Assembly (NCBI GenBank): GCA_964600735.1 | Contig: CAZRLL010000002.1 | Coordinates: 1 to 24,000, forward strand | Reading direction: 5' to 3' | From: an uncultured archaeon | GTDB lineage: Archaea > Asgardarchaeota > Heimdallarchaeia > Heimdallarchaeales > Kariarchaeaceae | DNA length: 24,000 nucleotides | In this document: positions 1,478 through 21,416 of the stretch, in pieces | Layout of the letters: each line of letters starts with the position of its first letter | Numbering within the stretch: position 1 is the stretch's first letter | Made by a program: the position numbers and the translations under genes | Notes under the pieces: generated by a model | Database searches by the model: none | Seen by the model: the letters and a program-made list of their open reading frames with translations, nothing else | Told to the model about the DNA's origin: nothing

Positions 1478-1882
1478 TTAACTGGCTAATATCCCTTTCA
1501 AGGGTTCTGCAAAATCACGTATAGTGTTTAGAGTGATTCCTACAGAATGGAGTTCTTTAGAAGCACCAATAAGTATATGTTCACCTGCAGTAACCAATAT
1601 TGTAAAACCAATTTCACCTCTAATTAACATTGCTTGTAGTTGACCATGATTCATCCTAGAGGTTACCATCGTTCCAGTAGACATCACTGCGGCGGATATT
1701 GCAGATAATAAATCTGGATCAGCACCTGCTTGTACAAAAAATGCGAGCGTTATACCCTCCCGAGTGATGATTCCTAACGCTTCTAATTCACATTGTTTTG
1801 AGATAGATGTAAGGAGTTTTACCAATTCTTGTTTTTGTTTTGCATTAATCTCTGTGGACATCCGATATCTATTTCTTTTCAT
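1478..1882 (-). CDS. Roadblock/LC7 (MglB-like) domain protein
   Basis: The core QELVKLLTSISKQCELEALGIITREGITLAFFVQAGADPDLLSAISAAVMSTGTMVTSRMNHGQLQAMLIRGEIGFTILVTAGEHILIGASKE matches the Robl/LC7 alpha-beta-alpha pattern (gv.ga.lv..dGl.la..., then i......l......g..L.v.a). The start is uncertain: TTG 1924, ATG 1882 or ATG 1861. The N-terminus is a short basic extension. Confidence 0.65.
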   Translation of the reverse strand: MKRNRYRMSTEINAKQKQELVKLLTSISKQCELEALGIITREGITLAFFVQAGADPDLLSAISAAVMSTGTMVTSRMNHGQLQAMLIRGEIGFTILVTAGEHILIGASKELHSVGITLNTIRDFAEPLKGILAS

Positions 1883-2051
1883 ACTAGGTTTAGTATTTTT
1901 TCTTGAACCATATTGAGGATTCAATTAAAAATTGTTTAATTAAGGTGATTTTTGCATGATATCAATAAACGTTATTTCTTGAAATCCCATCTAAATCTGA
2001 GATGACATGTCATGTATCCAAAAGACAATAAATATTTATAAGAAAAAATAG

Positions 2052-2936: not shown

Positions 2937-3284
2937 ATGGAATTTTGCGAAGAATGCGATTCATTATTGTTACCCAAAAAAATAAACAACCGAGTTGTTC
3001 CATTTTGTCCCGATTGTAATGAGAGCAAAGAAGAGGGGAAGCTAGGTAAGATTTCTTTTGAAGATGATGAAAGAAAAAAGGATCCTGAAGGTGGAAAATT
3101 ACTTGTGATAGAGAGTGATTCAAATGCGGTTGTTGGTAGACCAAGAAAAGATATGTTATGTCCAAAATGTCAATCTATCCAAGAAATCGAATATTGGGAA
3201 ATACAGACACGAAGTGCAGATGAAGCCCCTACACGCTTCTTCAGGTGTATGAATTGCGACAAAAACTGGAGAGAATACGATTAA
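2937..3284 (+). CDS. tfs: Transcription factor S (TFS; TFIIS/RpoM-like transcript cleavage factor)
   Basis: The N-terminal Zn-ribbon is CEECDS...CPDC. The C-terminal TFIIS-type Zn-ribbon is CPKC...(QTRSADEAPT acidic hairpin)...RCMNCDKNW. The 115-aa length is typical. Confidence 0.9.
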   Translation: MEFCEECDSLLLPKKINNRVVPFCPDCNESKEEGKLGKISFEDDERKKDPEGGKLLVIESDSNAVVGRPRKDMLCPKCQSIQEIEYWEIQTRSADEAPTRFFRCMNCDKNWREYD

Positions 3285-3677: not shown

Positions 3678-4511
3678 ATGACTGTAAAAATTTTTCTTGA
3701 TCAAGGCAAATTGATGAAAACGATTGTTGATGCGATGGTTTCAGTATCAGAAGATGTCACCATAGAGATAAGCGAAAACGGTTTTCGGGCTCAGGCAAGG
3801 GATATCGGAAATGCAATTGTGGTGGATACATTTCTGGATAAGCAAATATTTTCTAAAATTGATGCTCCATCATCAGGGATTTTTCACATTGATTTAGAAG
3901 ATTTTTCAGATTTTATAAAAACATCAAAAAGTGACGATTCCTTGAAAATTGAGGATAATACTGATAGAGGAACTCTAGATCTGGAGCTAAAATCATCAGA
4001 AATTACAAAACGCATACAATTGAGGTTAAACGACGTAAAAAACCATAGATTTATGAAAATTATTGACCGAAAATTCTTATCTGGTTGCGAGATGGATGCA
4101 GGTTTATTTGCAGATGCGGTTAAAGCTGCAGAATTGGGTGATGAACATGTTACATTAACTCATGATAAAGAAAAATTACATTTTACCGCTGCCTCAAATA
4201 CACGTTCTGCAGAAGCAACTATACATTATATCGATAATAACAAAGTTGGAAATGTAAATTTCGAAACTGGGACCTATCAAAACCGAAGTGGTGATACAGT
4301 GCAAATACCTGAAGTTCACGAAGCTACCTTTGGTTTGAAGTTTCTTAAACGAATATCAAAAATAGGAAGATCAGGTCAAACACTAAAATTAAGTATGACT
4401 AATAGTGAACCGTTAAGGATCATATACACTATTGATGATGAAGATAATGAAGAACAGGGGTATGTTGCATTTGCTGTGGCTCCCAGAGTTCTTGAAGATG
4501 ACATCATGTAA
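3678..4511 (+). CDS. pcn: DNA polymerase sliding clamp PCNA
   Basis: The N-terminus (...LMKTIVDAMVSVSEDVTIEISENGFRAQARDIGNAIVVDTFLDKQIF) and C-terminus (YVAFAVAPRVLEDD) match the PCNA pattern (GI...amD.shValv.l.l / f.lAPrie). At 277 aa it is slightly longer than usual because of an insertion in the C-terminal half. The SD-like TGAGGT lies 7 nt upstream. Confidence 0.85.
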   Translation: MTVKIFLDQGKLMKTIVDAMVSVSEDVTIEISENGFRAQARDIGNAIVVDTFLDKQIFSKIDAPSSGIFHIDLEDFSDFIKTSKSDDSLKIEDNTDRGTLDLELKSSEITKRIQLRLNDVKNHRFMKIIDRKFLSGCEMDAGLFADAVKAAELGDEHVTLTHDKEKLHFTAASNTRSAEATIHYIDNNKVGNVNFETGTYQNRSGDTVQIPEVHEATFGLKFLKRISKIGRSGQTLKLSMTNSEPLRIIYTIDDEDNEEQGYVAFAVAPRVLEDDIM

Positions 4512-4543: not shown

Positions 4544-5095
4544 ATGACTATTTATGAAATATTGGTTGCTTCATGGAAAAGGGAAAAAGAGGGATTGCAA
4601 TTAAATACGATGGATACTAATTTTTTTGAAAAATGTAGGGCCTACATTAACCACCTTGAAACGCAAGCAAGTAGTGAAACAGACATTTCAATAGCAAAAT
4701 TATTTAATAATCGATGGGTACGAGTTAACTATCTATTTAACGATCTAATTACTCTTAGATTACAAAAACAATTTCAAATTATCATTAATGGAGATAAATC
4801 ACCCAGTCCAATTCCCTTTGAGGAAGAGCATTTGAGAAATCAACTGATCAATTTACTTTTAACATATAGAGATGAAGTCATCGGGATTAAAACAAAAATT
4901 CAAAATGAGAATGATCAAGATGAAGGTGACAATTATGAATTGGTTCATTTTTCTCAAAATGAGAATTTGCAAACGGTAGGAGTCGATTTAAGAAAATATG
5001 GACCTTTTGAAAAAGGTGATTTGGCAATTATACCAAAAGAAAATATGAGATACTTCATGAAAAGATCTAAAGTAGATCACATCAAAATCGATTAA
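4544..5095 (+). CDS. GINS complex subunit, Gins51 (Gins15)-type
   Basis: The A-domain is at the N-terminus (YEILVASWKREKEGLQLNTMDTNFFEKCRAYINHL...LITLRLQKQ). The small beta B-domain is at the C-terminus (ELVHFSQNENLQTVGVDLRKYGPFEKGDLAIIPKENMRYFMKRSKVDHI). That A-then-B order marks the Gins51 family. It lies adjacent to PCNA. Confidence 0.7.
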   Translation: MTIYEILVASWKREKEGLQLNTMDTNFFEKCRAYINHLETQASSETDISIAKLFNNRWVRVNYLFNDLITLRLQKQFQIIINGDKSPSPIPFEEEHLRNQLINLLLTYRDEVIGIKTKIQNENDQDEGDNYELVHFSQNENLQTVGVDLRKYGPFEKGDLAIIPKENMRYFMKRSKVDHIKID

Positions 5096-5692: not shown

Positions 5693-7186
5693 ATGTCTCT
5701 GGAAATAACTCCTCTTAGATTAATTATGTTTACATCAGAAACTTGTGTATACTGTCCACCAATTGAAACAATAGTGAGAGAAGTTGTTGGATCTGGTATG
5801 CAGGATCTGGTTCATGTATCAACAATTGATATTGACGATGATCATGAAGCTAGTTCTCGATATCAAATTCAATCTCTTCCAACCTTAGTCATAAATGATG
5901 AAATTGTCTTGCAGGGTGGAATGGATGATGATTCAGTTAGAGATCTATTGTGGTCAACATTATTAAATCAAGCGATAACTTCAGAACAGGCAATTACGTT
6001 GACGAAAAATTCTTTACTTGCACTTACTATGAACGCAATGGATTCTCTCAATGGTTCAAAAGTATTAAGACCATCGGTAGGAGACTATACTCATATCGGT
6101 GTATTTCAGCAATATCTTTTGAGTCTTTATAGCTTAGATCCATTAATTCCACATTTGTTGTACAAAGCAGGCTATCAATTGGGAATGTTTGGGATGATGC
6201 ATCATGTGTTGACATTACTCAATCCTAAACTTGGCAGAACCCCTAAAAGAGATCTAAGATTCAAACACTTAGCCTATGCTTTAACTCTCTATTTTTCGGA
6301 TAGGGAGATTCTTCCAACATTACTTGCAGAATCTGCGAACGTTGTTAAAATTACAGACACCCAGATAGATCTCCGAGTAAATGACATGGCTTCAGCGTCT
6401 ATTAGGATCGATGTAGGTGAACCCATGTGTGGATTTTTTGCTGGACAACTTGCTGGAGTTACTGCTGCGGTTATGGGGATGTCTGGAACTGCTGCTAGTT
6501 GTGAAGAATTAATTTGTATGGCTAATGGTGGTGAATATTGTCTATTCCAAATATCTATTGCTGGGGAAGAATTAGCAGAAAAACCACTTCCTCCACTTGA
6601 AAATAAGGAGGAACGTGCAGGAAGGAGGCAAAACTTCTATGAAGTCATTCATGAAATGACAAATATTATTCAAGATAGTAATTTGATGATTAAAACTCAA
6701 CGAGTTAAAGTTAGAGACTTCATTCACATATCTGTTTTACAACCAATAATAATATCAATTAAATTCCTAGATAGATTTTCAGGGACAATTTTGTATAATG
6801 GAGGAAAAGAATTGGGAGTATTTGGACCGGGGAAACAGTTACTAATTCGATTGGTTCAAGAGGAAGGAATACAAGTTCCCGTGCCTCTAGAAAAAGCTGT
6901 AAATCTATTATTGGCATATTTAAGACACCCGACAACCATGCTTGGGAGAGAACATGGTCTAGTTAGGCTGAATCACGAAGACGATGACAGTTATACCTTA
7001 GAAATTGATGATAGTGTAAGTATCGCCGGAATGCAGACAGCAGAACTTAATAAAACATTTTGTGATTTTCAAGCTGGATTTATTGCTGGTAGATTATATA
7101 TTCTTGTTGGAAAGGATCCAATAGTGAAAGAAATAGAGTGCCAAGGAACTGGACATCAAACTTGCAAATATCGAATTACGGTTTAA
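5693..7186 (+). CDS. Fusion protein: N-terminal thioredoxin/glutaredoxin-like domain (CVYC) followed by two V4R (4-vinyl-reductase / Bet3-like) domains
   Basis: The Trx-fold signature is RLIMFTSETCVYCPP...SLPTLVIND (CxxC at 5744-5755). There are two copies of the V4R C-terminal signature: CGFFAGQLAGV...CEELICMANGGEYCLFQISI and CDFQAGFIAGRL...IECQGTGHQTCKYRITV. Confidence 0.7.
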   Translation: MSLEITPLRLIMFTSETCVYCPPIETIVREVVGSGMQDLVHVSTIDIDDDHEASSRYQIQSLPTLVINDEIVLQGGMDDDSVRDLLWSTLLNQAITSEQAITLTKNSLLALTMNAMDSLNGSKVLRPSVGDYTHIGVFQQYLLSLYSLDPLIPHLLYKAGYQLGMFGMMHHVLTLLNPKLGRTPKRDLRFKHLAYALTLYFSDREILPTLLAESANVVKITDTQIDLRVNDMASASIRIDVGEPMCGFFAGQLAGVTAAVMGMSGTAASCEELICMANGGEYCLFQISIAGEELAEKPLPPLENKEERAGRRQNFYEVIHEMTNIIQDSNLMIKTQRVKVRDFIHISVLQPIIISIKFLDRFSGTILYNGGKELGVFGPGKQLLIRLVQEEGIQVPVPLEKAVNLLLAYLRHPTTMLGREHGLVRLNHEDDDSYTLEIDDSVSIAGMQTAELNKTFCDFQAGFIAGRLYILVGKDPIVKEIECQGTGHQTCKYRITV

Positions 7187-8573: not shown

Positions 8574-9242
8574 TTATTTGTCACTACTGCCTAATTCTTC
8601 CTTCAAAGATTTTAATTCATCTTCAAGATCATTTGTTGACTCTTTTTTCTCATTTTCACCTGAAGTAGATGGAGTCGTAAGCATGCCGGCTTCGGGCAAG
8701 TCACCATGAGATTCGGATTGCATTTCCAATTCAAGAGCAGCTAGCTGATCATCGATTGAATCAGCAAATTCACCATCCAGATCCATTTCAAGACTTGAAA
8801 CATCTGATAACGATTCAGTCATCATAGAAATCCTGTCCCGTTGATCATCCATCTCAACTATGGTCCTTTCAACGTCTAATGGAGATATTTGTTCTAATGT
8901 ATCTTCAACAACTTGACTACCTACTTTCAAAGCAGTTACTGTTTCTGCTGTTGATTTTGCAGTTGAGATTGTATCAATTTGAGTTGATAAATTTAAACTC
9001 ATATTTTGACTTTGATTGTATTTTTGCATATACAAGCTGCTTCGCGTTAGAGCTTGTCTGGCACCAACCTTGTTCCCAGATTGAACCATAGATTTGGCAA
9101 CTTGCTTTTGTTCTTCGGATTTTCTAAGAAGATTCCGCCCTTCTACTTCCAAAGAGTTAAGTTGTTTTTTTAACTTCTGGAGCGCTTCAGCCTCCTTATT
9201 ATCACTCTTACCCTTACCAAATAACCATGATTTGATACCCAA
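8574..9242 (-). CDS. ESCRT-III subunit, Snf7 family, Vps20/32/60 (CHMP4/6)-like
   Basis: It has an N-terminal membrane-insertion-like motif (GIKSWLFGKGK) and a basic helical hairpin (LQKLKKQLNSLEVEGRNLLRKSEEQKQVAKSMVQSGNKVGARQALTRSSLYMQKYNQ). The C-terminal half is acidic and ends in a MIM-like helix (DLEDELKSLKEEL). The start is a TTG, with GGAGG (9251-9255) 8 nt upstream and no alternative start that keeps the conserved N-terminus. Confidence 0.85.
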   Translation of the reverse strand: MGIKSWLFGKGKSDNKEAEALQKLKKQLNSLEVEGRNLLRKSEEQKQVAKSMVQSGNKVGARQALTRSSLYMQKYNQSQNMSLNLSTQIDTISTAKSTAETVTALKVGSQVVEDTLEQISPLDVERTIVEMDDQRDRISMMTESLSDVSSLEMDLDGEFADSIDDQLAALELEMQSESHGDLPEAGMLTTPSTSGENEKKESTNDLEDELKSLKEELGSSDK

Positions 9243-9245
9243 TTT

Positions 9246-9857
9246 TTATTCCTCCTTTTTCCTTAAAGATTCTATTTCTTTCTCTAATTCTGATGTTTTC
9301 GTTGTAGGCATTGGTAATCCAACAGAAGCAGTTATTCCAACTTCTGCACCATATTCCTGGAGTAGATTGTCAATTTCCCCCTCATCGGTATCAGATTCAA
9401 ATAGTTGATCCATGCTGTCTTCCATAATTTCTGATGTGTCTTCAATGCCTTCAAGAGCTTGATTCATGTCGCCAACCAAATTATCAATCTCAGGTAGGTT
9501 TAAAGCGTTGTTTGCATCAATCAATGATTTTGAAACACCTCTCATTTCCTTTGCGATATCTTGGACAGCATCGGCTCGCTCTAACTTGAAAATAAGTCCA
9601 TCAATCTTGCTAATGAGAGATTGATATCCTCTCCCCCATTTTCTTGAACGCACGGTATCTTGTGCATACATACGTGCAGCCTGCATATCTCCTTTTTGAA
9701 TTGCTGCTCGAATTTTTCGTTCAGTTTTCTTTTCTTGATTTTCAAGCTTACGCTGAGATTTTGTCAATCTTCGATTGACAAGTTTCAAATTTAAAGTGTT
9801 GTCACGACTGGATCTTGTACTTTTACCTCCAACAAGCCATCCTAGTATATCTCTCAA
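9246..9857 (-). CDS. ESCRT-III subunit, Snf7 family, Vps2/24/46 (CHMP1/2/3)-like
   Basis: The N-terminus is RDILGWLVGGK. The core KLVNRRLTKSQRKLENQEKKTERKIRAAIQKGDMQAARMYAQDTVRSRKW matches the Vps2/CHMP2 pattern (Rel.r....le.qekk....IKka.kkG....Aki.A.d.vr.r). The C-terminus is acidic and ends in an amphipathic MIM-like helix (SELEKEIESLRKKEE). The start is a TTG, the first start-type codon after an in-frame TAA at 9885-9887. Confidence 0.85.
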   Translation of the reverse strand: MRDILGWLVGGKSTRSSRDNTLNLKLVNRRLTKSQRKLENQEKKTERKIRAAIQKGDMQAARMYAQDTVRSRKWGRGYQSLISKIDGLIFKLERADAVQDIAKEMRGVSKSLIDANNALNLPEIDNLVGDMNQALEGIEDTSEIMEDSMDQLFESDTDEGEIDNLLQEYGAEVGITASVGLPMPTTKTSELEKEIESLRKKEE

Positions 9858-10140
9858 TTTTAATTCACTCGTATTATATTGTGCTTACATTAATTATTAA
9901 TTTTCCCTTTAATAAAAACTTCCTATTGGAATGTCATAATGATCGCGCGAATTTGGCTCGAAAATACTTTAATTCATATCATACAATTATAAATATTGTA
10001 CTTGATTGATTTGTGTCCATTGTAATAATTGCTGTAACTAATATTGGGAATTTTCCATCCAGTCATTATTATCAGACAAAGGTATTTATCAAATGAAAAA
10101 TATTTTTTATTTTGTAGCAGTAACCAGAGTGGGTGATTTA
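9858..10140. promoter_or_regulatory. Divergent promoter region between the ESCRT-III operon (-) and the Vps4-Vps25 operon (+)
   Basis: This is a 283-bp AT-rich spacer between divergently oriented genes. It has a TATA-like ATTTATCA at 10084-10091 and an SD-like GGTGAT at 10132-10137. An isolated perfect GC palindrome, TCGCGCGA, sits at 9943-9950. The exact elements are unverified. Confidence 0.3.
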
Positions 10141-11289
10141 ATGAGTCAAAATTTATATGCAAGAGCCAGAGTACTTGCTGAGCAAGCAGTCGAAGCTGAT
10201 AATGCACAGAAATATGGGGATGCACTTAACATGTATCTCCAAGCTGCAGAAATCTTGCTCGAGATGACCAAATTCACATCGAATTCCAGACTCGTTGACA
10301 CCTATGAAAGCAGGGCGAAAGAATATATTGCTCGTGCCAAGGTCCTTAAGCCATTGAGTCTGCAGAAAAAAAGTATAAAATCAGATAGATCAAGTGATTC
10401 ATCAGATGATTCTGAACTTGACAGTTCATTGGAGGATGCAATTGTTTCAGAGATACCTGATGTTACATTAGATGACGTGGCAGGACTTACCGATGCTAAA
10501 ACCGCTTTGCGAGAAGCGATTGTTTTACCATTACTTCGACCTGATTTATTTACAGGATCGAGACAGCCTTGGAGAGGTATATTATTGCATGGACCCCCCG
10601 GTTGTGGAAAAACTATGATTGCTAAAGCTACTGCTGGTGATGTTGAGGCAACATTTTTCAATATTTCTGCAGCTACTTTGGTAAGTAAATGGCTGGGAGA
10701 GAGTGAGAAGTTAGTAAAAAGGTTATATGAAATTGCAAAAGATAAGCAACCCTCAATAATTTTTATTGACGAAGTCGATTCCCTGACCCAAACGAGGGGA
10801 GAGGGAGAAAATGATGCGATGAGGAGAGTTAAGACTCAATTATTAACAAGCATGGAAGGATTGTCATCAAAAAAAGGAGATCGAGTAGTCACAATCGGAG
10901 CAACAAATATTCCATGGGAAATTGATTCTGCTTTTAGGCGAAGATTCCAGAGAAGAATATACGTTTCATTACCCGATATAGAGGCAAGGGAAGTGATCTT
11001 CAAAATTAATTCCAAAGGGATTGAACTTAACCCTGACATCGATTTCAATGAACTTGCGAAAATGACAGAGGAATATTCTGGATCGGATATTGCAAATATT
11101 TGCCGTGAAGCAATAATGAAACCGATACGCGATTTAGATACTAGTGATTTAATTTTGGATTTGGAAACAAAAGCAAGACCTGTTGTCCACAGTGACTATA
11201 TTAGTGCACTTGAAAATGTTCGCAAGTCGGTATCTGCCTCAGAATTGGCAAAATTTGATGAATGGGACAATGAATTTGGAGCAGGCTAG
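10141..11289 (+). CDS. vps4: Vps4-type AAA+ ATPase (MIT domain plus a single AAA cassette)
   Basis: The N-terminal MIT-like three-helix region is ARVLAEQAVEADNAQKYGDALNMYLQAAEILLEM...YESRAKEYIARAKVL, followed by a Ser/Asp-rich linker. Walker A is GPPGCGKT (10591-10614) and Walker B is IIFIDEVD. The second region of homology is ATNIPWEIDSAFRRRFQRRIYVSLPD, and the Vps4-type C-terminal helix is ELAKFDEWDNEFG. The ATG at 10141 is preferred over 10093 because of the adjacent SD-like motif. The extra 16 aa from 10093 are hydrophobic and not MIT-like. Confidence 0.93.
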   Translation: MSQNLYARARVLAEQAVEADNAQKYGDALNMYLQAAEILLEMTKFTSNSRLVDTYESRAKEYIARAKVLKPLSLQKKSIKSDRSSDSSDDSELDSSLEDAIVSEIPDVTLDDVAGLTDAKTALREAIVLPLLRPDLFTGSRQPWRGILLHGPPGCGKTMIAKATAGDVEATFFNISAATLVSKWLGESEKLVKRLYEIAKDKQPSIIFIDEVDSLTQTRGEGENDAMRRVKTQLLTSMEGLSSKKGDRVVTIGATNIPWEIDSAFRRRFQRRIYVSLPDIEAREVIFKINSKGIELNPDIDFNELAKMTEEYSGSDIANICREAIMKPIRDLDTSDLILDLETKARPVVHSDYISALENVRKSVSASELAKFDEWDNEFGAG

Positions 11290-11293
11290 TTTA

Positions 11294-12016
11294 ATGTCAG
11301 TAAAAGAGCGTCCTGATAAGAAAAAAGAAAAAGAAAAAGTAGATAATTATAGTGCAAAAAATGAGGATAAATCGATAGAAGACTGGTTGGATAACGTTTC
11401 GCTTGATCCTCCCGAACAAACTCCTAAAACGAGCTCTGAAGACCCCCATATCGCACAATCAAAAGAAGAAATTCAGATAGTGTCCCAGGATAAGCACCAT
11501 GAATTCATTGTTTCATTACCATCTTGGATTTCTAAACCCTGGATGTATGTTCAACCAACCCATCAAAATCAGTTGGAATCGTGGTTGGATTCGTGGAAAA
11601 AAGTAATTGTAGATTATTCGCGTATTTTAACTTTACATGTCATTAACATATCGGAGTTGATCAACCAACACCCGTTTAATAATCACGAACTCAATAAAAG
11701 ATTAACAGGAGATATTATTAATAATATCTTTGAACATATGATACAAGATGGGTTAGCGAAATGGCTTGACGAGAATCATATTTTAGTACGAATATATTAT
11801 AAAACTAATGAACAGTGGAGTTCAATTATTATGGAATATTTGATAAATACCGGACTAGCAGCTGAAGTCTTAACACTTTATGAGGTGGAAAAATTAGAAC
11901 AAGAATGGAGTTCAATTCCTCGTAATGAATTGGTGGAAATATTTGACATTCTAGTAACCAAAAAAAGAGCAGGATGGGTGGGAGATACCAAAGACACACT
12001 AACGTTTCATTTATGA
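11294..12016 (+). CDS. ESCRT-II subunit, Vps25-like (tandem winged-helix) with an ~85-aa charged N-terminal extension
   Basis: FIVSLPSWISKPWMYVQPTHQNQLESWLDSWKKVIVDY aligns with the Vps25 hallmark F.WP....FPPFFTLQPN..TR..QL..W..LIL.Y. It is followed by ...ELINQHPFNNHELNKRL... and ...EQWSSIIMEYLINTGLAAEVLTLYEV..., as in Vps25 WH1/WH2. The ATG lies 4 nt after the Vps4 stop. The ORF-track start at 11183 overlaps Vps4 and is rejected. Confidence 0.8.
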   Translation: MSVKERPDKKKEKEKVDNYSAKNEDKSIEDWLDNVSLDPPEQTPKTSSEDPHIAQSKEEIQIVSQDKHHEFIVSLPSWISKPWMYVQPTHQNQLESWLDSWKKVIVDYSRILTLHVINISELINQHPFNNHELNKRLTGDIINNIFEHMIQDGLAKWLDENHILVRIYYKTNEQWSSIIMEYLINTGLAAEVLTLYEVEKLEQEWSSIPRNELVEIFDILVTKKRAGWVGDTKDTLTFHL

Positions 12017-12100
12017 TTGATGATTGAATTTCTTGTTAATAATATTTATTGTTGAATCTAGTGTACTATTGATATTTCACTTTTAATTCGCTTTTTTCGA

Positions 12101-12826
12101 TCATTGTTGTCCAAGACTCGGGAACCAGTATTTTATTCCCTCATGGTATGATTCGTCCTTTAAGGTTATTCCCTCTTTAATTAATTCTTCAATTACTCTT
12201 GTCACCCTTTCAGGAGGCCAACCAGTATACATAATAAGTGATTCTTTTGTTAGGAATCCGTGTCGAGCTGCCAAATCGAATACATTTTGTTGGTCTTTAG
12301 ATAATTCGATTGCAATAAATTCAACAATCAAGACACCAGATGGTAATTTTCTCAAAGGTTGGATTAATTTTGAATCAACTAGAGAGTTTAATGACCGTAT
12401 TGCATCCTTGGGTGGTACCAATTTTCCAGGGCGAGATTTATTAATTTTTATAACTAATTCAGCAACAGATATTAAACCCCCTGTATCTTGCACAAATGAT
12501 TTTCCTAATTCAAGTATTTCATTTGCGAGTTGATCAAAATAACCCTTACCTCTGATTCGATCCATAACTGATGGACTCTCTTTCCAATCATAAATTCCAA
12601 CTTCTTCCGGTAATCCCAATTCTTCACGAATAACCGCGATTTTTTCGTAATAATCCTTATTATTTCGAATTTCTTTTCCATGTTTCTTTTCGAATTTCTT
12701 TAACTGTTCTTTAAGAGTTTCAACATTTTCGATAAGATTATCCAACTCAAGTAGCATCATTTCTGCTTCTTTGCGCTGATATGCGCTTTTGGATTTGATC
12801 TTCCTCTCGATATCTCTTAATCCCAT
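12101..12826 (-). CDS. ESCRT-II subunit, Vps22/Vps36-like (EAP30 domain)
   Basis: An N-terminal helical/coiled-coil segment is followed by an EAP30-like tandem winged helix: DTGGLISVAELVIKINKSRPGKLVPPKDAIRSLNSLV...LPSGVLIVEF...LTKESLIMYTGWPPERVTRVIEELIKEGITLKDES..GIKYWFPSL. Compare the Vps22/36 pattern GGmi.l.d.y...R...vSp.Dl..A...l...sG..v.q...ws..ra...L...G..w.D....yw.p. The start ATG overlaps the Vps28-like stop (TAATG). Confidence 0.8.
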   Translation of the reverse strand: MGLRDIERKIKSKSAYQRKEAEMMLLELDNLIENVETLKEQLKKFEKKHGKEIRNNKDYYEKIAVIREELGLPEEVGIYDWKESPSVMDRIRGKGYFDQLANEILELGKSFVQDTGGLISVAELVIKINKSRPGKLVPPKDAIRSLNSLVDSKLIQPLRKLPSGVLIVEFIAIELSKDQQNVFDLAARHGFLTKESLIMYTGWPPERVTRVIEELIKEGITLKDESYHEGIKYWFPSLGQQ

Positions 12827-13437
12827 TACAATTCCTTCAAATGTCTGCGAAATTCGTTTAACCAGCGTACTGCGTCAAATTCTAACTTCTCACACTGCTC
12901 ATCGGATAGAACCATTGTGGGTTTCTCATCTAGTAGTGTCTTTCGCCAACCGTTTAATTCAATGATGGACCAATGATCTTCACCTAATTTTGGAAAATTT
13001 ATCAAAATATTGTACATGTCATCTAATAAAGGTACGAGATATTCCACTTTAGCTACCGTTCTTAATTTTAATAAATCAATCAACTCAATTGCATTTGCTA
13101 CATAATCAGCAGATTTTACAGGTAATTCCTTTAGTTCTTTATACTCTAGTGATATTGCATCAGAGTCTAATCCTTCAACAAGATCCAATCTTCTCATTCC
13201 TTCAGGGAACTTGTTGGTCAAATCTTCACGTTCAATAAAATCTGTCAGATTGAAACCTTGTCTTTCCAATTGTAATCTGGCTTTGAAAACATCAGAAATG
13301 CATGACTTCAATTGTCTTCGATAAAGCGTCTCTTCAACCAATCCCTTATCAAAATATTTTGATAATTGGTCCATTGTAGCAATGGCAGCATATAGGTCTG
13401 CTTCAACTTGTAATGGGTCTTTTTGTCTTCTCTGCAT
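12826..13437 (-). CDS. ESCRT-I subunit, Vps28-like
   Basis: The N-terminal core LYAAIATMDQLSKYFDKGLVEETLYRRQLKSCISDVFKARLQL matches LYsii.t.e.LEkay.kd.i...eY...c.kLl.Q.k. The C-terminal four-helix-bundle region EYLVPLLDDMYNILINFPKLGEDHW..LNGWRKTLLDEKPTMVLSDEQCEKLEFDAVRWLNEFRRHL matches the Vps28 CTD pattern (..W...L..m.a.deL.e.q.rql.fDle.aY..F...L). Confidence 0.8.
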   Translation of the reverse strand: MQRRQKDPLQVEADLYAAIATMDQLSKYFDKGLVEETLYRRQLKSCISDVFKARLQLERQGFNLTDFIEREDLTNKFPEGMRRLDLVEGLDSDAISLEYKELKELPVKSADYVANAIELIDLLKLRTVAKVEYLVPLLDDMYNILINFPKLGEDHWSIIELNGWRKTLLDEKPTMVLSDEQCEKLEFDAVRWLNEFRRHLKEL

Positions 13438-14107
13438 AATTAGGTCCCTCTATTTGTAATAATTCTCGGGTCGCAATGTATAGCTCACGGATGTATTTTC
13501 GATATAATCTAAAGAAATCAACTTGGTCAATATCCGCTTCCTCAAACTTAATGGTTATTAATTCCAGCAGATCATTAATGGCAAGTACCTGGCATTCTGC
13601 ATCCATTTGTCTCGATATTTTAAATGACCCACCAACTGCGACATCAACTCCTGCCTTTTGGAGTTGATCAGTTTTTATTTCAGCTATTTTTCGGTTATAT
13701 TCAGCTATTTGTTTCTGAAGAGAAACGATTTCCTGTTCCAGCTTGCCCTCGAGCATCGAAATATCTTTTACACCACGTGTTATGGATGTTCTAGAACGAA
13801 TGAATAACCGACGAGTTGTAGATATCACATCTTTTAATCGATATGTAGGTTCCCACTCGTCCAATAATTGCAGGGCTAGTGTCTTATTTGAATTAATATT
13901 AGGATGACGAATTTCTGTTAATACGTTGACATCAGGCCTGATTACTGGATAAAATTCCGGTAAAGTAATTCGAATTCTGATGTCGTCACCTGATGCCGTT
14001 CTTCCAACCTTTCCGACGAAGGCATTTCCATGTGCTTGAAAGGTTGGTTCATTTCGAAAAATCCAATCAAGCTCTTGAGCAATAATTTTTCCTGTGTCAA
14101 TATCCAT
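13403..14107 (-). CDS. ESCRT-I subunit, Vps23/Tsg101-like: UEV (catalytically dead E2 fold), coiled coil and steadiness-box-like C-terminus
   Basis: The E2/UBC-fold core is IRITLPEFYPVIRPDVNVLTEIRHPNINSNKTLALQLLDEWEPTYRLKDVI. It keeps the HPN motif (13904-13906), but the catalytic Cys position is Ala (GCC, 13874-13876). A coiled coil follows (LEGKLEQEIVSLQKQIAEYNRKIAEIKTDQLQK), then a C-terminal helical hairpin (INDLLELITIKFEEADIDQVDFFRLYRKYIRELYIATREL). The ATG at 14107 has AGGTGG (14120-14125) 12 nt upstream. The ORF track extends to a TTG at 14185. Confidence 0.7.
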   Translation of the reverse strand: MDIDTGKIIAQELDWIFRNEPTFQAHGNAFVGKVGRTASGDDIRIRITLPEFYPVIRPDVNVLTEIRHPNINSNKTLALQLLDEWEPTYRLKDVISTTRRLFIRSRTSITRGVKDISMLEGKLEQEIVSLQKQIAEYNRKIAEIKTDQLQKAGVDVAVGGSFKISRQMDAECQVLAINDLLELITIKFEEADIDQVDFFRLYRKYIRELYIATRELLQIEGPNYAEKTKRPITS

Positions 14108-14334
14108 TTTGCTTACTGACCACCTACTCTCATGTATTTCCCAATGTAAATAATTACGATTGTACAAGATAATAAGGTTAAGCAATTTGATAGTTACTTT
14201 TGTTAGAATTATTTATTATTTTGCTCAAGAATTTTCGATCCACTCTTTATGACAGTCAGATATGATATGATCTTTTTATAATATTTTGAAAATATTACTC
14301 CTAAAACTAATTTTGTATTAAATCAATTAACCCA

Positions 14335-16305
14335 TCATTCGTCAATTATAGGTAGAAAACGAACCTCTGGAAAAGACCAAAACACATTTCCATCCGTTAC
14401 CTGACGAAGAGTATCAGCTAATTTGGAACTATTTTTGACTGGAATGATTGCTTTAATATTACATTCGTCCTCTGTACTTACCTCTTCAATAGATGCTCTA
14501 TATTTCTGTAATTCATGTAAGGTGTTACCTAAGTAGGTATCTCCCACATTAATATCAATTGTATAATATGGTTCATGTTGTGTACTTTTCGTAAAAACCA
14601 ATGCTTCTCGGATCAAAGTTGATGCAGTGATCATTCCACTCTCATAACTGGGAGAAGACTTAGTAATAAGATAGGATTCAACTATTAACGTAAAATTTTT
14701 AATCCTGCCGCCCGAAATAGGGGATATCCTCATGGTCTGCTTGAATACATCAATAAAACCTTCTAATACTTCTTTTTCTATATCACAATGAAGAACAAGT
14801 TGATTCGAATGATTATCTTTGAAAAAAATATTCCTTTCATCAACTTGGGTAAATTTTGACGACCTCCCTGCGTGAATCGAAATTTTAGGATTTTTAGAAA
14901 ATACGAACATGGATTCCATCAAGGGCATCTCAAATTGTAAAATAATTGGATCAGAAACTTCAATTTCAAAATCCATATTTTTCAATTCAGATGCTAGAAC
15001 ATCTAATTGTAACGTGCCTACTCCGAGGAGAAGTAATTCGCCAGTATCTTGATTTGATTCAAATTCTAAACCGGGTGTTGCCTGAACTAATACTTCAATC
15101 ACCTCTTGTAATCGGCTAATGTCATTAATTTTAAGTGGTTCAATACTAATTGCAACAACTGGATCCTGAACATAGGAAATATTTTTTAAAAAAAAGTTCT
15201 TCTCTTTCGGAGGAACAAGTAAATCACCAGGCATTATGGGTTTATTAACAATTAGTCCCCCAATTTGACCAGCTGTTAACAGAGGCACATCTTTACTAGA
15301 TCTACCATGTAACTCGATAATTCGCATAATGCGTAAATTTTCACTATTAAGGGAAGATTGAAGTTTCTGACCTCGTTTCAATGTTCCCGATGCCACTCGT
15401 ACAATGGATGCCCATTGTTTGCCATGATCCAGCCTTACAAACCGTCCAACTATTGTGATCGGAACACCTAATTTACTACATGAATGCAATTCTGCTAGTA
15501 AACCATCTGGAATTTTATTTAATAGCATGTTTGGAAATTTATATTTTTGACCCTCAATTGGGGAAGGAAGATTTTCAACGATACATCGGGTTAAAGTGGC
15601 AGCGAGATTTGTATTATCAGGAAACTTGTTAATTGTATCATTTTGGTAGATTTCAACAACATCACTTAATTTTCCATTCTCCTTCACAAAAAAATTATCC
15701 ATCGCCCAACCATCAGTTGCAGAGCCAATAATAACAGATCCTACTGAAAATTTCGGTAAAAATTGTTTTTCAAAACCGTAATGCTCACAAATTGTGTGAA
15801 TCTCGCTAATTATTCGTTCTAATCGTTGTTGAATTGTTATTATTGGTAACTCTAACTCGTTAATTAAACGATCTACTTTGTTTATGAATAAAACAAGTTT
15901 AAGTTTCTCTCTGATTGCTTGACGTAGTACTGTCCTTGTCTGAGCCATTATACCCTCAACCGCGTCAACAAGAATTAATCCTCCATCAACAAGTCTTAGA
16001 GATTCTGCTACTTTCCCTGAAAAATCAACATGACCTGGAGTATCAATTAAATTGATATGATAGTTTTTATTATTATATTCTAATTGAAAAGTTGCTAGAG
16101 TTGTTTCAATGGTAATACCTCTGCGCTGCTCTTCTGGTAAAAAATCCAAGGCTCGTAATGTACCTGCTAAATGTGAGGGTATCATTCCTCCAGAAGCTAT
16201 TAGATGATCAGAAAGAGTTGTTTTTCCATGATCCACATGAGAAATAATTGATAAATTTCTGATGAGTTGAACGTTATTATTATCAATTGGTTTTTTGTTT
16301 TTCAT
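14335..16305 (-). CDS. Elongation factor 2 (EF-2/EF-G family) paralogue, short and lacking the diphthamide-acceptor His motif
   Basis: The GTPase motifs are G1 SHVDHGKTT, G2 RGITI, G3 DTPGHVDF and G4 NKVDR. Overall collinearity is with aEF-2, including the domain V-like C-terminus (HEPYYTIDINVGDTYLGNTLHELQKYRASIEEV...IKAIIPVKNSSKLADTLRQVTDGNVFWSFPEVRFLPI). It is only 656 aa. Where EF-2 has H-x-D-x-x-H-R-G, this protein has ITKSSPSYESGM (14632-14667). Confidence 0.85.
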   Translation of the reverse strand: MKNKKPIDNNNVQLIRNLSIISHVDHGKTTLSDHLIASGGMIPSHLAGTLRALDFLPEEQRRGITIETTLATFQLEYNNKNYHINLIDTPGHVDFSGKVAESLRLVDGGLILVDAVEGIMAQTRTVLRQAIREKLKLVLFINKVDRLINELELPIITIQQRLERIISEIHTICEHYGFEKQFLPKFSVGSVIIGSATDGWAMDNFFVKENGKLSDVVEIYQNDTINKFPDNTNLAATLTRCIVENLPSPIEGQKYKFPNMLLNKIPDGLLAELHSCSKLGVPITIVGRFVRLDHGKQWASIVRVASGTLKRGQKLQSSLNSENLRIMRIIELHGRSSKDVPLLTAGQIGGLIVNKPIMPGDLLVPPKEKNFFLKNISYVQDPVVAISIEPLKINDISRLQEVIEVLVQATPGLEFESNQDTGELLLLGVGTLQLDVLASELKNMDFEIEVSDPIILQFEMPLMESMFVFSKNPKISIHAGRSSKFTQVDERNIFFKDNHSNQLVLHCDIEKEVLEGFIDVFKQTMRISPISGGRIKNFTLIVESYLITKSSPSYESGMITASTLIREALVFTKSTQHEPYYTIDINVGDTYLGNTLHELQKYRASIEEVSTEDECNIKAIIPVKNSSKLADTLRQVTDGNVFWSFPEVRFLPIIDE

Positions 16306-16596: not shown

Positions 16597-17535
16597 ATGA
16601 TTACAAATCACCTGTTGATCAATAAATTAGCATTGAAATATGATACAAATCGGGATCTGGTTAAATCACTTAGTACATGGTTTGGAGTAACCGAAACTGA
16701 AAACATGTTGAAAATGAAACCATCAAACCTTCAAAAAACGATCCGTGTAAATATTACTAAAATTTCTCGGACTGAAATGATAGATAAATTGGCAGATGAC
16801 AATATCAAATGTAGTCCGTTAACTGGGGTTCCAGAAGGAATTTTGGTAAAATCGGGCTGGAAAAAAATTGGAAGCCACATTTCTTACTTAAACGGTGAAT
16901 TTATGCCCCAAGGTTATGGATCAATGTTGGCAGTACACGCATTAGATCCATTACCCGGAGAAACAATACTGGAAATGGCAGCTGCACCTGGAGGAAAAAG
17001 CTGTTTTATTGGCGAAAGATTACAAGGGAAAGGTATATTAATTGCTAACGATCGTTCTATAAAAAGAATATCAGCATTAATAGGAAATCTAGCCCGTCAT
17101 GAAATAGAAAATGTAATAGTAACATTACAAGATGGAATGAATTTGGAAATTCAATCAGTTGATCGTATTTTATTGGATGCACCCTGTACAGGTGAGGGAT
17201 TAATTGTATCGAAAATTAATCGAAGAAAATCGAAAATAATTCATGAAAATTACAAAATGCAAAAAGTTCAAATTGGACTATTGAATAAAGCAATAAACCT
17301 TCTAAAACCAGGTGGTACCTGCGTATACTCAACATGTTCATTGACACCTATAGAAAATGAACAAGTTATCGAAAAAGTATTGAATAAAGTTACTATCGAG
17401 AAATTGCAAGTTGAAGGTCAGGAGGGGTTTTCAAGTATTCATCCCGAATTCATAAAAACTAAACGATTATTACCCTCAGTCCATATGTGCGATGGGTTTT
17501 TTATAGCAAAATTAGTAAAGGTTGAACCACAATGA
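16597..17535 (+). CDS. NOL1/NOP2/Sun-family RNA cytosine-C5 methyltransferase (Nop2/Trm4/RsmB-like)
   Basis: The SAM-binding motif I is LEMAAAPGGKS. Motif IV is LLDAPCTGEG with the catalytic Cys, and motif VI is VYSTCSL (TC). The 312-aa length is typical of archaeal Nop2/Sun proteins. Confidence 0.88.
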   Translation: MITNHLLINKLALKYDTNRDLVKSLSTWFGVTETENMLKMKPSNLQKTIRVNITKISRTEMIDKLADDNIKCSPLTGVPEGILVKSGWKKIGSHISYLNGEFMPQGYGSMLAVHALDPLPGETILEMAAAPGGKSCFIGERLQGKGILIANDRSIKRISALIGNLARHEIENVIVTLQDGMNLEIQSVDRILLDAPCTGEGLIVSKINRRKSKIIHENYKMQKVQIGLLNKAINLLKPGGTCVYSTCSLTPIENEQVIEKVLNKVTIEKLQVEGQEGFSSIHPEFIKTKRLLPSVHMCDGFFIAKLVKVEPQ

Positions 17536-17978
17536 TCAGAAAGGAAAAAAAAGATGTGGAACAGCTGATCAGAGATCTTCTTAGAATTAAAATTGAATTA
17601 CTTGAGAGGGATTATTATCTGGTTCAACAAAGGAAAAATATGTATACGATAAATTATGCAAATTTAAATTTCCCAATTCCAGACCTATCAAATATTGTCT
17701 CTATTGGGGTTCCAATCATTACAGGGAATCCTAGTAAAATTACACTCTTACCAAGTATTTTGAATTGTTTAGATGAGAAAATAAGAAATTATAAAATTAA
17801 TAAATCTGAAGTCAACCGAGTTAGTCATGGCTATTCAATTAGCATTGATACTCAAGATCGACTGTTAATTTTAATTGATAAATATAACAGAAGAATTGCA
17901 TTTGGTAAGGTCGAAGACAAATATTTCAAGCCAATTGCAGATATTGGTTTGTATTTAAGAAATGAAAAACTCTTCTGA
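17532..17978 (+). CDS. Nip7-like (UPF0113) protein with a C-terminal PUA-like domain
   Basis: The start overlaps the methyltransferase stop (ATGA at 17532-17535). The C-terminal segment VNRVSHGYSISIDTQDRLLILIDKYNRRIAFGKVEDKYFKPIADIGLYLRNEKLF resembles the Nip7 PUA end (...lG.g......v..qADIGEYLR.E), as I recall it from eukaryotic and archaeal Nip7. The N-terminal half is weakly conserved. Confidence 0.55.
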   Translation: MIRKEKKDVEQLIRDLLRIKIELLERDYYLVQQRKNMYTINYANLNFPIPDLSNIVSIGVPIITGNPSKITLLPSILNCLDEKIRNYKINKSEVNRVSHGYSISIDTQDRLLILIDKYNRRIAFGKVEDKYFKPIADIGLYLRNEKLF

Positions 17979-19289: not shown

Positions 19290-21416
19290 ATGAAAAAAGA
19301 GTCACAGTATTATATTATTGCATTAGTTGTATTATTCTTGTTGAATCCTACTACAATTCAGATGGGAGCTAAAACGGATGCAAACCATGATCAGTCATTA
19401 TCTCCTGAAAGTTATAATCCCAAATTTGATCTGTTCAACATAAGAGATCAAATGACACTCACACCAATCTTTACTCCCGATAATGCCTTATCTTCGCATA
19501 TTGGATGGATTAACCAAGCAAATTCAACAATTGACATCCAGAATCAATATATCAAATTTTTTGATTCTTATGATGATTGGGAAACAAATCCCACTCCATT
19601 TGTAGCAGCTTTATTAAATGCAAAATTACGAGGAGTGAGTATCCGGGTACAATTAAGAGATAATGAAAGTAATGAGATCGAACCTTTTCTTTTGAATAAG
19701 GGAATTTCTGTAAAGTACATGGGGTCTTTAATTAGCAATACAGATGATGACGACTGGTTATCGAATACTCATAATAAGTTAATGATTATAGATGAAAGTG
19801 TAATACTTATATCATCAATTAATTTTGGAAGTGGATTTATAAACAGTAGAGAAGCAGGTATTGTTGTTCAAAACGCTCAAGCTGCAAATTACTTCACTTC
19901 AATTTTTGAAAATGACTGGGTGGATGGAGAAGTTCCTGTTTTTCGATTAACTGATCCTGGAATTATATCAGAGAAAATTGTTACAAACAGTGTGGATTAT
20001 CCCAGTCATACCAATATTCCTAAGACAAATTTTACTGGAATATACAACATTACTCTTTTTACTAACCCGGACAATGCTGATGGGGTGATTTTTAATTTCT
20101 TGAAAGCAGCAAAAAAATCGATTTATGTTTCAATGTATACAATTTCTAGACCCGATTTCAATAACACACTAATTAATCTCAAAAAAGCCAATCCCTCGAT
20201 TGATATACAAGTATTAATTTCCAGTCGACGAGTTGGTAAATATGAAAATATTGATACATGGTCTGCAGTTAAATCATTAGTAGACAATCTAATTCCGGTA
20301 TATAATGCATCTGTGGATACTTTTATTGATCAAGCTGGGTTTTACCATAATAAATATTGGATAATTGATGGTGAACATACCTTCGTTTATAGTGGTAATT
20401 GGAGTCCCAGAAGTGTAACACCTGTGGAAACACAATATTCTTCCGATGAGGGAAATAGAGATATGGGAATAGTAATCCATGATGCCACTGATATTGCTGA
20501 TTTTTACAAGAATGTATGGGATCAAGATGTTTTAGTTGCAGATAAGTGGGAACTCCCAATTGGGATTAAGCAGACTAGTTTTCAAACTGCTGATGTTGTT
20601 TATGGTTCAATCACTCTTTCGGCAAATATTAACGGTTTAAATAATCCAACTGTTTCATATCGTTGGGGGAATGGGGATTATCATCAGGTGAGTTTAACCA
20701 ATAACACATTTTCTGAAGAATTTGATACAACAACATTCGAAAATGGAATTACAACATTTGAGGTCAGAGCAGAAGAAGTAACTCAAGTTTTTACCGATAA
20801 AGTGATTATTAATGTGGTCAACTTGGTCGAGAATGATAACTGGAGATTTTTAATAACTGAATTGTTACCAAATCCTGAGGGTACAGACTCCGTTGCCGAA
20901 TTTATTGAATTAACGAATAGCTTTCCATTTGATTTATTGATTGAAGACTGGCAGATTGGTGATGATAGTGATTTGTTCTCTTTTAAGGGGGGAACGAAAA
21001 TAAAATCATATTCTTCGATAATATTGGCAAAGGATAAATCAGGATTTGAAAGCACATTTAGTATAACTGCGGATTATGAATTTAGATTTACTCTGAAAAA
21101 TACCGATGGAGACTATGTACGATTGCTGGACAATCATGAAGAATACATGGATGTCGTTGCCTATGGATTGGATGCACCTGATGGCTCTGAAAAATTATCA
21201 ATTCCAGATTCAGGAGAATCAATCTTGAGAATAAACTTACATATAGACACTGATGAAGCAGCAGATTTTACATTTGGTGAACCAGATCCCAAGGGAGAAG
21301 TTCCACAGATTTCTATGGGGATTTTAGAAACAGACGAGACAGCTGCACCTATTATAACTCCATGGATATTTCTAATAATCTCGATGCTCCCAATTTATTT
21401 GAAGAAACAAAAGTAA
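19290..21416 (+). CDS. Secreted/membrane-anchored phospholipase D-superfamily enzyme (two HKD motifs) fused to a lamin-tail domain (LTD)
   Basis: The N-terminal signal/anchor is MKKESQYYIIALVVLFLLNPTT. HKD motif 1 is HNKLMIIDESVILISSINFG (from 19770) and HKD motif 2 is HNKYWIIDGEHTFVYSGNWS (from 20346). The LTD signature is ITELLPNPEGTDSVAEFIELTNSFPFDLLIEDWQIGDD. The C-terminal hydrophobic segment with a basic tail is PIITPWIFLIISMLPIYLKKQK. Confidence 0.8.
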   Translation: MKKESQYYIIALVVLFLLNPTTIQMGAKTDANHDQSLSPESYNPKFDLFNIRDQMTLTPIFTPDNALSSHIGWINQANSTIDIQNQYIKFFDSYDDWETNPTPFVAALLNAKLRGVSIRVQLRDNESNEIEPFLLNKGISVKYMGSLISNTDDDDWLSNTHNKLMIIDESVILISSINFGSGFINSREAGIVVQNAQAANYFTSIFENDWVDGEVPVFRLTDPGIISEKIVTNSVDYPSHTNIPKTNFTGIYNITLFTNPDNADGVIFNFLKAAKKSIYVSMYTISRPDFNNTLINLKKANPSIDIQVLISSRRVGKYENIDTWSAVKSLVDNLIPVYNASVDTFIDQAGFYHNKYWIIDGEHTFVYSGNWSPRSVTPVETQYSSDEGNRDMGIVIHDATDIADFYKNVWDQDVLVADKWELPIGIKQTSFQTADVVYGSITLSANINGLNNPTVSYRWGNGDYHQVSLTNNTFSEEFDTTTFENGITTFEVRAEEVTQVFTDKVIINVVNLVENDNWRFLITELLPNPEGTDSVAEFIELTNSFPFDLLIEDWQIGDDSDLFSFKGGTKIKSYSSIILAKDKSGFESTFSITADYEFRFTLKNTDGDYVRLLDNHEEYMDVVAYGLDAPDGSEKLSIPDSGESILRINLHIDTDEAADFTFGEPDPKGEVPQISMGILETDETAAPIITPWIFLIISMLPIYLKKQK

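Follow-up and report, generated by a model that had tools for sequence, protein, structure and literature searches.

A short-form aEF-2p, an EF-2 paralogue without the diphthamide loop, in a Kariarchaeaceae archaeon

Introduction

Some archaea carry a second, divergent copy of elongation factor 2 (EF-2). This paralogue, aEF-2p, was described in Asgard archaea, Korarchaeota and Bathyarchaeota that lack the dph genes; it keeps the GTPase motifs, has lost the domain-IV loops and was predicted to be a non-translocase (Narrowe et al. 2018, Genome Biol Evol 10:2380, PMC6143161). In the surveyed genomes it is a second copy beside canonical aEF-2 (PMC6143161). Eme et al. (2023) restate the finding, and their supplement (4.1.2) places the loss of dph in all Heimdallarchaeia but Hodarchaeales (PMC10307638). 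In this study, we analysed a 24-kb stretch of a Kariarchaeaceae contig (CAZRLL010000002.1, positions 1-24,000; hereafter the window), focusing on one EF-2-family gene on its minus strand at 14335..16305.

Eukaryotes possess EF-2 paralogues of their own. EFL1 (Ria1) has a large extra insertion and acts, together with SBDS, in the eviction of eIF6 from large ribosomal subunits, while Snu114 has an N-terminal extension and a spliceosomal role. In published trees, EFL1 has been traced to a eukaryotic duplication of the LC3/Hodarchaeales-type EF-2 (PMC6143161).

Results

Fold and GTPase centre

Judged from its sequence, the window gene is a member of the aEF-2p family, all of whose sequence-level characters were found in it. 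The gene and the parts of its product are as follows.

14335..16305, minus strand: aEF-2p gene encoding a 656-aa EF-2-family translational GTPase paralogue (open reading frame (ORF), family and PDB matches; ATG start, stop codon included)
15679..16263, minus strand: G domain, residues 15-209 (Pfam GTP_EFTU, 4.8e-52)
16216-16242, minus strand: G1 SHVDHGKTT, residues 22-30 (motif position)
Residues 62-66: G2 RGITI (motif position)
16030-16044, minus strand: G3 DTPGH, residues 88-92, with catalytic His92 (motif position)
15871-15882, minus strand: G4 NKVD, residues 142-145 (motif position)
Residues 194-197: G5 GSAT (motif position)
15250..15435, minus strand: domain II, residues ~291-352 (weak Pfam EF-G_D2 match of 21.4 bits, under the cut-off of 27)
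14959..15165, minus strand: domain III, residues 381-449 (Pfam EFG_III, 2.4e-12)
14581..14943, minus strand: shortened, divergent domain IV, residues ~455-575 (without Pfam EFG_IV match; deletions relative to canonical aEF-2)
14632..14667, minus strand: domain-IV tip ITKSSPSYESGM, residues 547-558, where canonical aEF-2 has the diphthamide loop HxDxxHRG (MAFFT alignments)
14641-14646, minus strand: conserved Y554-E555 within the tip (paralogue alignment)
14374..14577, minus strand: domain V, residues 577-644 (Pfam EFG_C, 6.9e-11); the protein stops 12 residues further on

The five-domain EF-2 fold is complete and the GTPase centre is intact. In an alignment of 107 sequences (A2), the columns that hold G1 to G5 are all invariant or nearly so. 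An AlphaFold2 (AF2) model built from 107 homologues (pLDDT 89.8, pTM 0.82) predicts a beta-barrel at residues 283-353, and its top Foldseek matches are the GMPPCP-bound aEF-2 structures of M. nitroreducens (Methanoperedens), 6u43/6u44 (TMq 0.76-0.79); further aEF-2 chains, eEF2 and Snu114 come next. The earlier note on this DNA, made from the sequence by eye, had described a 656-aa protein with EF-2-like domains and a full G domain in which G1-G4 are intact. The Pfam matches to GTP_EFTU, EFG_III and EFG_C and the modelled EF-2 fold agree with that description, and G5 is present too. A pseudogene was considered and rejected on the basis of the unbroken ORF and the invariant G motifs.

The sequence matches put homology to aEF-2 far beyond chance. 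The top NCBIfam model is archaeal aEF-2, TIGR00490 (1.5e-107), although the score of 360.5 bits compares with a trusted cut-off of 738.45 and the match is good only over residues 12-473. Likewise, the top hit of the PDB sequence search is archaeal aEF-2 5h7j (8.7e-94, 318 bits). This chain aligns well to residues 13-474, covering the G domain and domains II and III (296 bits), but gains only 20 bits over residues 511-650. No EFG_IV domain was found in the Pfam search.

Remodelling of domain IV

The divergence is concentrated in domain IV. In MAFFT alignments with Methanocaldococcus and other canonical aEF-2, the canonical segment LHEDAIHRGPAQ aligns with 'LITKSSPS--YESG' of the window protein, so that the diphthamide loop has a 2-residue deletion and contains no His at all. 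The second decoding-centre loop is gone as well: 'SKNP----KIS' stands against the canonical 'SKSPNKHNKL', with 4 residues deleted. Domain IV has also lost about 32 aa (alignment A1, columns ~520-552), and the C-terminal LxxIRxRKGL helix of aEF-2 is absent, a loss of ~15-30 aa (A1 columns 731-760). The short length of the protein is explained by the loss of the SPNKHN loop, the ~32 residues of domain IV and this helix. In the PDB sequence search, residues 238-640 are colinear with residues 239-633 of bacterial EF-G (1zn0_B); the trimmed protein is therefore EF-G-sized.

In the earlier note the diphthamide His had been reported missing and the tip peptide placed at 14632-14667, and both statements are exact. 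It had also allowed that the His might be retained and merely misaligned. This was rejected, because an indel cannot restore a His to a loop that has none; the residue is absent rather than shifted. Its question whether domain IV is shortened is answered by the three deletions of ~32, 4 and 2 residues.

The tip has acquired a conserved feature of its own. Among the short paralogues, a Y or F occupies the first position of the dipeptide in 75/77 sequences and an E the second in 76/77, while the same columns hold R-G in 21/21 canonical sequences. In the AF2 model the Y-E dipeptide starts the helix after the tip loop. The near-invariance of [Y/F]-E suggests selection for a new contact and a tip that is not simply degenerate. 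Together with the invariant G motifs, it was counted in support of purifying selection on what would be a new function.

Relatives within the aEF-2p family

Relatives of 633-690 aa make up ~80 clusters in the protein database, labelled Heimdallarchaeota, Heimdallarchaeaceae, Kariarchaeaceae, Thorarchaeota and Bathyarchaeia. Both domain-IV loops are missing in all of them. The closest is P0002, a 'GTP-binding protein' from a metagenome-assembled genome (MAG) of Candidatus Kariarchaeaceae, with 63% identity. In a neighbour-joining (NJ) tree built on A2, the short His-less proteins are monophyletic and apart from the HRG-bearing canonical aEF-2, with the window protein as sister to P0002; this is a crude distance method, with long branches and without the published aEF-2p reference sequences.

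The window protein resembles the described aEF-2p in its five-domain EF-2 fold, the preserved G1-G5, the non-conservation of the diphthamide and SPHKHN loops, the long branches and a host among non-Hodarchaeales Asgard. It differs in being a short form (633-690 aa) with the ~32-aa deletion in domain IV and no C-terminal helix, and in that the tip of the short form is not unconserved but carries the near-invariant [Y/F]-E. In the 2018 survey, the paralogue was not found in Heimdallarchaeote LC2, where it was suspected to be unassembled (PMC6143161).

Other His-less EF-2 paralogues are near full length (694-730 aa). These include P0094 and P0135 (Helarchaeota), P0082 and P0147 (Odin), and P0077, P0081, P0088 and P0116 (Bathyarchaeia-like). 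Their tips differ ('LQSETSQLNL', 'LSRNPEERGY') and have no [Y/F]-E, which points to more than one paralogue lineage, either of independent origin or separated long ago.

Public annotation does not separate these proteins. The His-less paralogues (P0002-P0074) and many true 750-aa Asgard aEF-2 of the HxDxxHT[G/S] type (P0267-P0384) are alike called 'GTP-binding protein', so the product name cannot tell paralogue from true aEF-2. Taxon labels are mixed even inside single 90% clusters, Heimdallarchaeota occurring with Promethearchaeota, and Hodarchaeota with Lokiarchaeota and Thorarchaeota.

Relation to canonical aEF-2

Canonical aEF-2 is the best match of the window protein in both sequence (8.7e-94) and structure (TMq up to 0.79). 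On the other hand, the window protein lacks HxDxxHRG, SPNKHN and EFG_IV, is ~70-95 aa shorter and scores 360 rather than 738 bits. It has neither of the two properties of a TIGR00490 equivalog, namely a score at the cut-off and a full-length match that includes domain IV. Because both decoding-centre loops are absent and the score is below that cut-off, the protein is in all likelihood not the housekeeping translocase, which is also what the earlier note had proposed.

The opposite case would be that this gene is the sole EF-2 of its host, a diphthamide-independent housekeeping translocase. All that speaks for it is that no second EF-2 gene was found in the 24-kb window. Against it stand the loss of both loops and the C-terminal helix, a score far under the aEF-2 cut-off, an evolutionary rate much higher than that of the neighbouring genes while true Asgard aEF-2 are at least 72% identical among the best 120 matches described below, and the report of aEF-2p as second copies beside canonical aEF-2 in the surveyed genomes. 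We regard this explanation as extremely improbable. No dph genes occur in the 24-kb window either, which is uninformative for the whole genome.

Canonical aEF-2 of Asgard archaea is represented by P0143, a protein of the HxDxxHT type that carries 'HEDPRHTS' and 'SLNTHN', as published for Loki aEF-2. The best 120 matches to P0143 are all at least 72% identical and bear labels of Loki, Thor, Odin, Hermod and Heimdall types, mostly Loki/Promethearchaeota; among these 120, none was placed by accession in a MAG with a short aEF-2p. A scan of genome contigs with a mixed alignment of canonical and paralogue sequences listed unrelated archaeal and bacterial GTPases, the query peptides being generic (H[VI]DHGKTT, NLIDTPGH). 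Scanning metagenome contigs with the back-translated clade peptide GVGTLQLD[VI]L gave 3 short contigs, none encoding aEF-2p. Of the proteins at the two ends of the window, the right-hand one had no recorded contig and the left-hand one occurred only on a contig of 1.3 kb.

Evolutionary rates and gene context were compared over ten distinct loci of the window's clade (the window counted) and a Heimdallarchaeaceae-type locus, L004. Between the window and locus L001, Vps28, Snf7, Vps4, EAP30, TFE and V4R proteins are 78-88% identical and aEF-2p 63%. For locus L002 the values are 73% for Vps4, 70-72% for Snf7 and 47% for aEF-2p. On these identities, aEF-2p evolves much faster than its neighbours and than the slowly evolving canonical aEF-2, and this was counted in support of divergence from the translocase role.

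Eukaryotic and bacterial paralogues

In the PDB sequence search, eEF2 (~190 bits), EF-G (~168), EFL1 (168.5) and Snu114 (151) rank below aEF-2. EFL1 shares with the window protein the status of an EF-2 paralogue without diphthamide and with a non-translocation GTPase role, perhaps a functional analogy. However, the best-scoring stretch against EFL1 (5anb_K) covers only residues 10-172 of the window protein, the PDB chain of EFL1 has 1120 aa compared with 656 aa, and its evolutionary origin is different. Neither the larger size nor the closest full-length similarity expected of an EFL1 was found, and the protein has no insertion relative to aEF-2. The possibility of an EFL1-like protein, raised in the earlier note, finds no support in sequence or structure and is no more than a functional guess: EFL1 reaches 168 bits with its best stretch in the G domain only, aEF-2 reaches 318, and the extra length of EFL1 is missing. 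Snu114 is much longer (PDB chains of 853-972 aa), whereas the window protein begins 12 residues before its G domain.

Bacterial Tet(M)/Tet(O) and EF-G2 offer a different comparison. They too are translational GTPases whose domain-IV loops have been reshaped to serve a task other than translocation, and the window protein is EF-G-like in length. Their scores are much lower, with 169 bits for NCBIfam tet_protect compared with 360 for aEF-2, and the window protein is archaeal in origin and has no resistance context. An origin from bacterial EF-G or Tet proteins was rejected on these NCBIfam scores.

Translation-related neighbours

Two genes on the opposite strand lie next to aEF-2p.

16597..17535, plus strand: Nop2/NSUN1-like rRNA m5C methyltransferase, transcribed divergently from aEF-2p (Pfam Methyltr_RsmB-F, 2.2e-44)
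17532..17978, plus strand: putative Nip7-like PUA protein of 148 aa, translationally coupled to the methyltransferase (sub-threshold Pfam UPF0113 PUA, E 0.0015)

The Nop2-like methyltransferase is the most consistent neighbour in the window's aEF-2p clade. In 7/10 clade loci (the window, L001, L003, L089, L093, L095 and L098) no more than ~4 kb separates it from aEF-2p, and in L003 the two genes stand in tandem, 10 bp apart. Its best PDB matches are human NOP2/NSUN1 (8fkt, 5.3e-43) and Nop2 of S. pombe and yeast.

In the clade loci the methyltransferase is usually paired with a protein of 140-150 aa that has a weak Nip7-type PUA signal. In the window, the 148-aa ORF overlaps the Nop2-like stop by 4 nt. 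Orthologues lie near aEF-2p in L001, L089/90, L093, L095 and L098; 4/6 orthologues give the UPF0113 PUA signal (best 2.6e-4), and the invariant residues are G59, P74, G125 and D137-x-G-x-Y-x-R143. No PDB match to the 148-aa protein was obtained by sequence or profile search. Nop2 and Nip7 are partners in 60S biogenesis in eukaryotes. Of the Nop2-Nip7 pair named in the earlier note, the first member stands on its human and fungal Nop2 matches, while the Nip7 identity comes from the sub-threshold PUA match only.

Other translation genes recur around the paralogue. EF-1alpha, S7 and L10e are found within ~6 kb of aEF-2p in L001 (1988-4592), L002 (15520-18017), L089 (1714-6401) and L093 (48-4429), and in L004 the paralogue adjoins S10 (8948-9262). 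In the classical str-type cluster of archaea, these are the neighbours of EF-2. Their presence near the short aEF-2p implies that the paralogue, and not canonical aEF-2, may hold the ancestral EF-2 position. Rio2, Emg1, an eRF1-like gene and Drg/RsgA-type GTPases are near aEF-2p in other loci. The recurrence of the Nop2-like gene and of translation genes makes translation and ribosome biogenesis the stable theme, with the ESCRT (endosomal sorting complex required for transport) block as a movable element.

The ESCRT locus and the rest of the window

The ESCRT genes are given here as context only.

8574..14185, both strands: ESCRT locus between TFE-alpha and aEF-2p (Pfam)
8574-9857, minus strand: two Snf7/ESCRT-III genes (Pfam)
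10093-11289, plus strand: Vps4 (Pfam)
11183-12016, plus strand: Vps25 (Pfam)
12101-12826, minus strand: Vps22/36-like EAP30 (Pfam)
12826-13437, minus strand: Vps28 (Pfam)
13403-14185, minus strand: UEV/E2-like gene (Pfam)

The window locus is complete but ubiquitin-less. The Vps25 ORF, listed from a TTG, runs over the last 107 nt of Vps4 in the same orientation (11183-11289); its true start is probably further downstream, because the Pfam match begins at residue 121.

ESCRT genes lie no more than three genes from aEF-2p in 4/10 clade loci (the window, L001, L002 and L095/96). The order aEF-2p-UEV-Vps28-EAP30 is common to the window and L001 (ESCRT at 10424-15852). In L002, aEF-2p directly follows Snf7-Snf7-Vps4, on the strand of Vps4 and 28 bp downstream of it. 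In L095/96, the block (L095 2770-8119) is three genes from aEF-2p and inverted relative to the window, although the flanking V4R-thioredoxin protein, TFE, Nop2-like gene and aEF-2p have not moved. In the window, the gap between aEF-2p and the UEV gene measures 149 bp if the TTG start is used and ~230 bp with the ATG, the likelier start; it is AT-rich and contains a TATA-like sequence, which makes a separate promoter plausible.

These arrangements bear on the idea that the GTPase is co-expressed with Vps4 or ESCRT-I, or regulates the ESCRT machinery. The co-directional adjacency to UEV-Vps28-EAP30 in the window and L001, the 28-bp spacing in L002 and the proximity of the block in L095 would fit. 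Yet ESCRT genes are missing near aEF-2p in 6/10 clade loci and in L004, the block is inverted between genomes, and the AT-rich gap of 149 to ~230 bp with its TATA-like sequence precedes the UEV gene. Moreover, a published study of ESCRT synteny makes no mention of an EF-2-like neighbour, and every domain of the GTPase is a ribosome-binding domain. A coupling of this kind is scarcely credible. The ESCRT block is a lineage-specific syntenic neighbour and not part of the system; the direct flanking remarked on in the earlier note is true of the window and is not general in the family.

Several further observations were made in the window.

2643-2732 and 2051-2126, both minus strand: tRNAs by Rfam; ARAGORN reports only tRNA-Val(TAC) at 2051-2126
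1478-1924, minus strand: Roadblock/LC7
2937-3284, plus strand: TFS (TFIIS zinc ribbon)
3678-4511, plus strand: PCNA
4544-5095, plus strand: Gins51
5693-7186, plus strand: thioredoxin-V4R fusion
19290-21416, plus strand: 708-aa protein in which a hydrophobic N-terminal segment is followed by two PLD-like domains, a lamin-tail domain (LTD, 2.6e-10) and, at the C-terminus, a hydrophobic anchor

The tRNA at 2643-2732 may have an intron, because it spans 90 nt compared with 71 positions of the model. The five ORFs from Roadblock/LC7 to thioredoxin-V4R form an informational and eukaryotic signature protein (ESP) set upstream of the ESCRT locus, and the Roadblock and TFS genes recur near aEF-2p of L003. 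The predicted domain order of the 708-aa protein is an unusual surface-enzyme architecture.

Discussion

Taken as a whole, the data are very probably explained by a member of the aEF-2p family that is not a translocase and serves a separate GTP-dependent step on the ribosome. The gene is real but already known, since aEF-2p has been published. Several points weigh against our explanation. We found no later paper that characterises aEF-2p and no experiment on any aEF-2p. With 24 kb visible, a canonical aEF-2 partner and a genome without dph are presumed for this host. The family tree is only a crude NJ tree with long branches. The synteny was seen in a single lineage, where common descent may account for it instead of function, and in 2/10 clade loci (L005 and L091/92) neither the Nop2-like gene nor ESCRT genes lie near aEF-2p.

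From the biology of EF-G and EF-2, domains I, II, III and V would be expected to dock on the ribosomal factor-binding site, at the sarcin-ricin loop and P-stalk, and to trigger GTP hydrolysis. Without the domain-IV loops, normal tRNA-mRNA translocation would be severely impaired or impossible. Translocation would fall to another gene of the genome, a canonical and highly conserved aEF-2, and the paralogue would perform a different GTP-dependent step on the ribosome. After the duplication, one side job of aEF-2 may have been handed to the paralogue.

As to which step this is, our guess by analogy, and a tentative one that may well be wrong, is the maturation or licensing of the large subunit, e.g., the removal of an anti-association or maturation factor. 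We rank this role first because of the Nop2-like neighbour and the precedent of aEF-2. In Sulfolobus, the GTPase of canonical aEF-2 releases aIF6 from the 50S subunit, and SBDS inhibits this release rather than helping it (PMC8024482). For Methanosarcina aEF-2, 50S dimerisation with PurH is a further documented side job (cited in PMC13324472).

One form of this role would be an analogue of EFL1, in which aEF-2p is dedicated to aIF6 release from the nascent 50S subunit, with or without SBDS, having inherited a moonlighting job. The activity of Sulfolobus aEF-2 is a precedent, a Nop2-like gene and possibly a Nip7-like gene are conserved neighbours, and the protein is built as one would predict for a factor that is translocation-incompetent and GTPase-competent. 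However, it has no special similarity to EFL1 (168 bits, in a G-domain stretch, compared with 318 for aEF-2) and none of its extra length, and the EF-2 lineage that gave rise to EFL1 is another one. SBDS was found neither in the window nor in the other loci examined, aIF6 came only within ~10 kb, in L089, in a separate r-protein cluster, and SBDS is an inhibitor of release in Sulfolobus. Such an analogue is conceivable but rather doubtful.

It is also possible, though still less probable, that aEF-2p helps the translation cycle to cope with the missing diphthamide, e.g., as a back-translocase or as a fidelity or rescue factor on the 70S ribosome, as suggested by Narrowe et al. The distribution of aEF-2p tracks the loss of dph, all ribosome-binding domains are kept in the modelled fold, and the [Y/F]-E tip could contact A-site ligands. 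On the other side, some dph-lacking lineages have no paralogue, the shortened domain IV may not reach the decoding centre, and the lack of direct evidence was counted against a helper of this kind.

Returning to a role on the large subunit, a bolder and quite improbable version is that short-form aEF-2p, with its near-invariant aromatic-Glu tip, is an independently evolved counterpart of EFL1, a GTPase dedicated to large-subunit licensing (e.g., the release of aIF6 or of a maturation factor) that is genomically tied to the Nop2-like gene and co-expressed with Vps4/ESCRT in some Heimdallarchaeia. If this were true, the co-expression would hint at ribosome licensing coordinated with cell division or membrane remodelling.

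The gene confirms the published pattern of a second EF-2-like GTPase, devoid of diphthamide, in the Asgard archaea that are not Hodarchaeales. It is of value as a well-preserved short-form aEF-2p in a clear genomic context; the conserved tip, the rapid evolution and the linkage to the Nop2-like gene are small additions to a known family. There is also a practical warning: given aEF-2p, EF-2 cannot be taken for a marker gene that occurs in single copy. The [Y/F]-E tip, the rapid evolution and the recurrent Nop2-like neighbour could guide the first functional experiments on aEF-2p.

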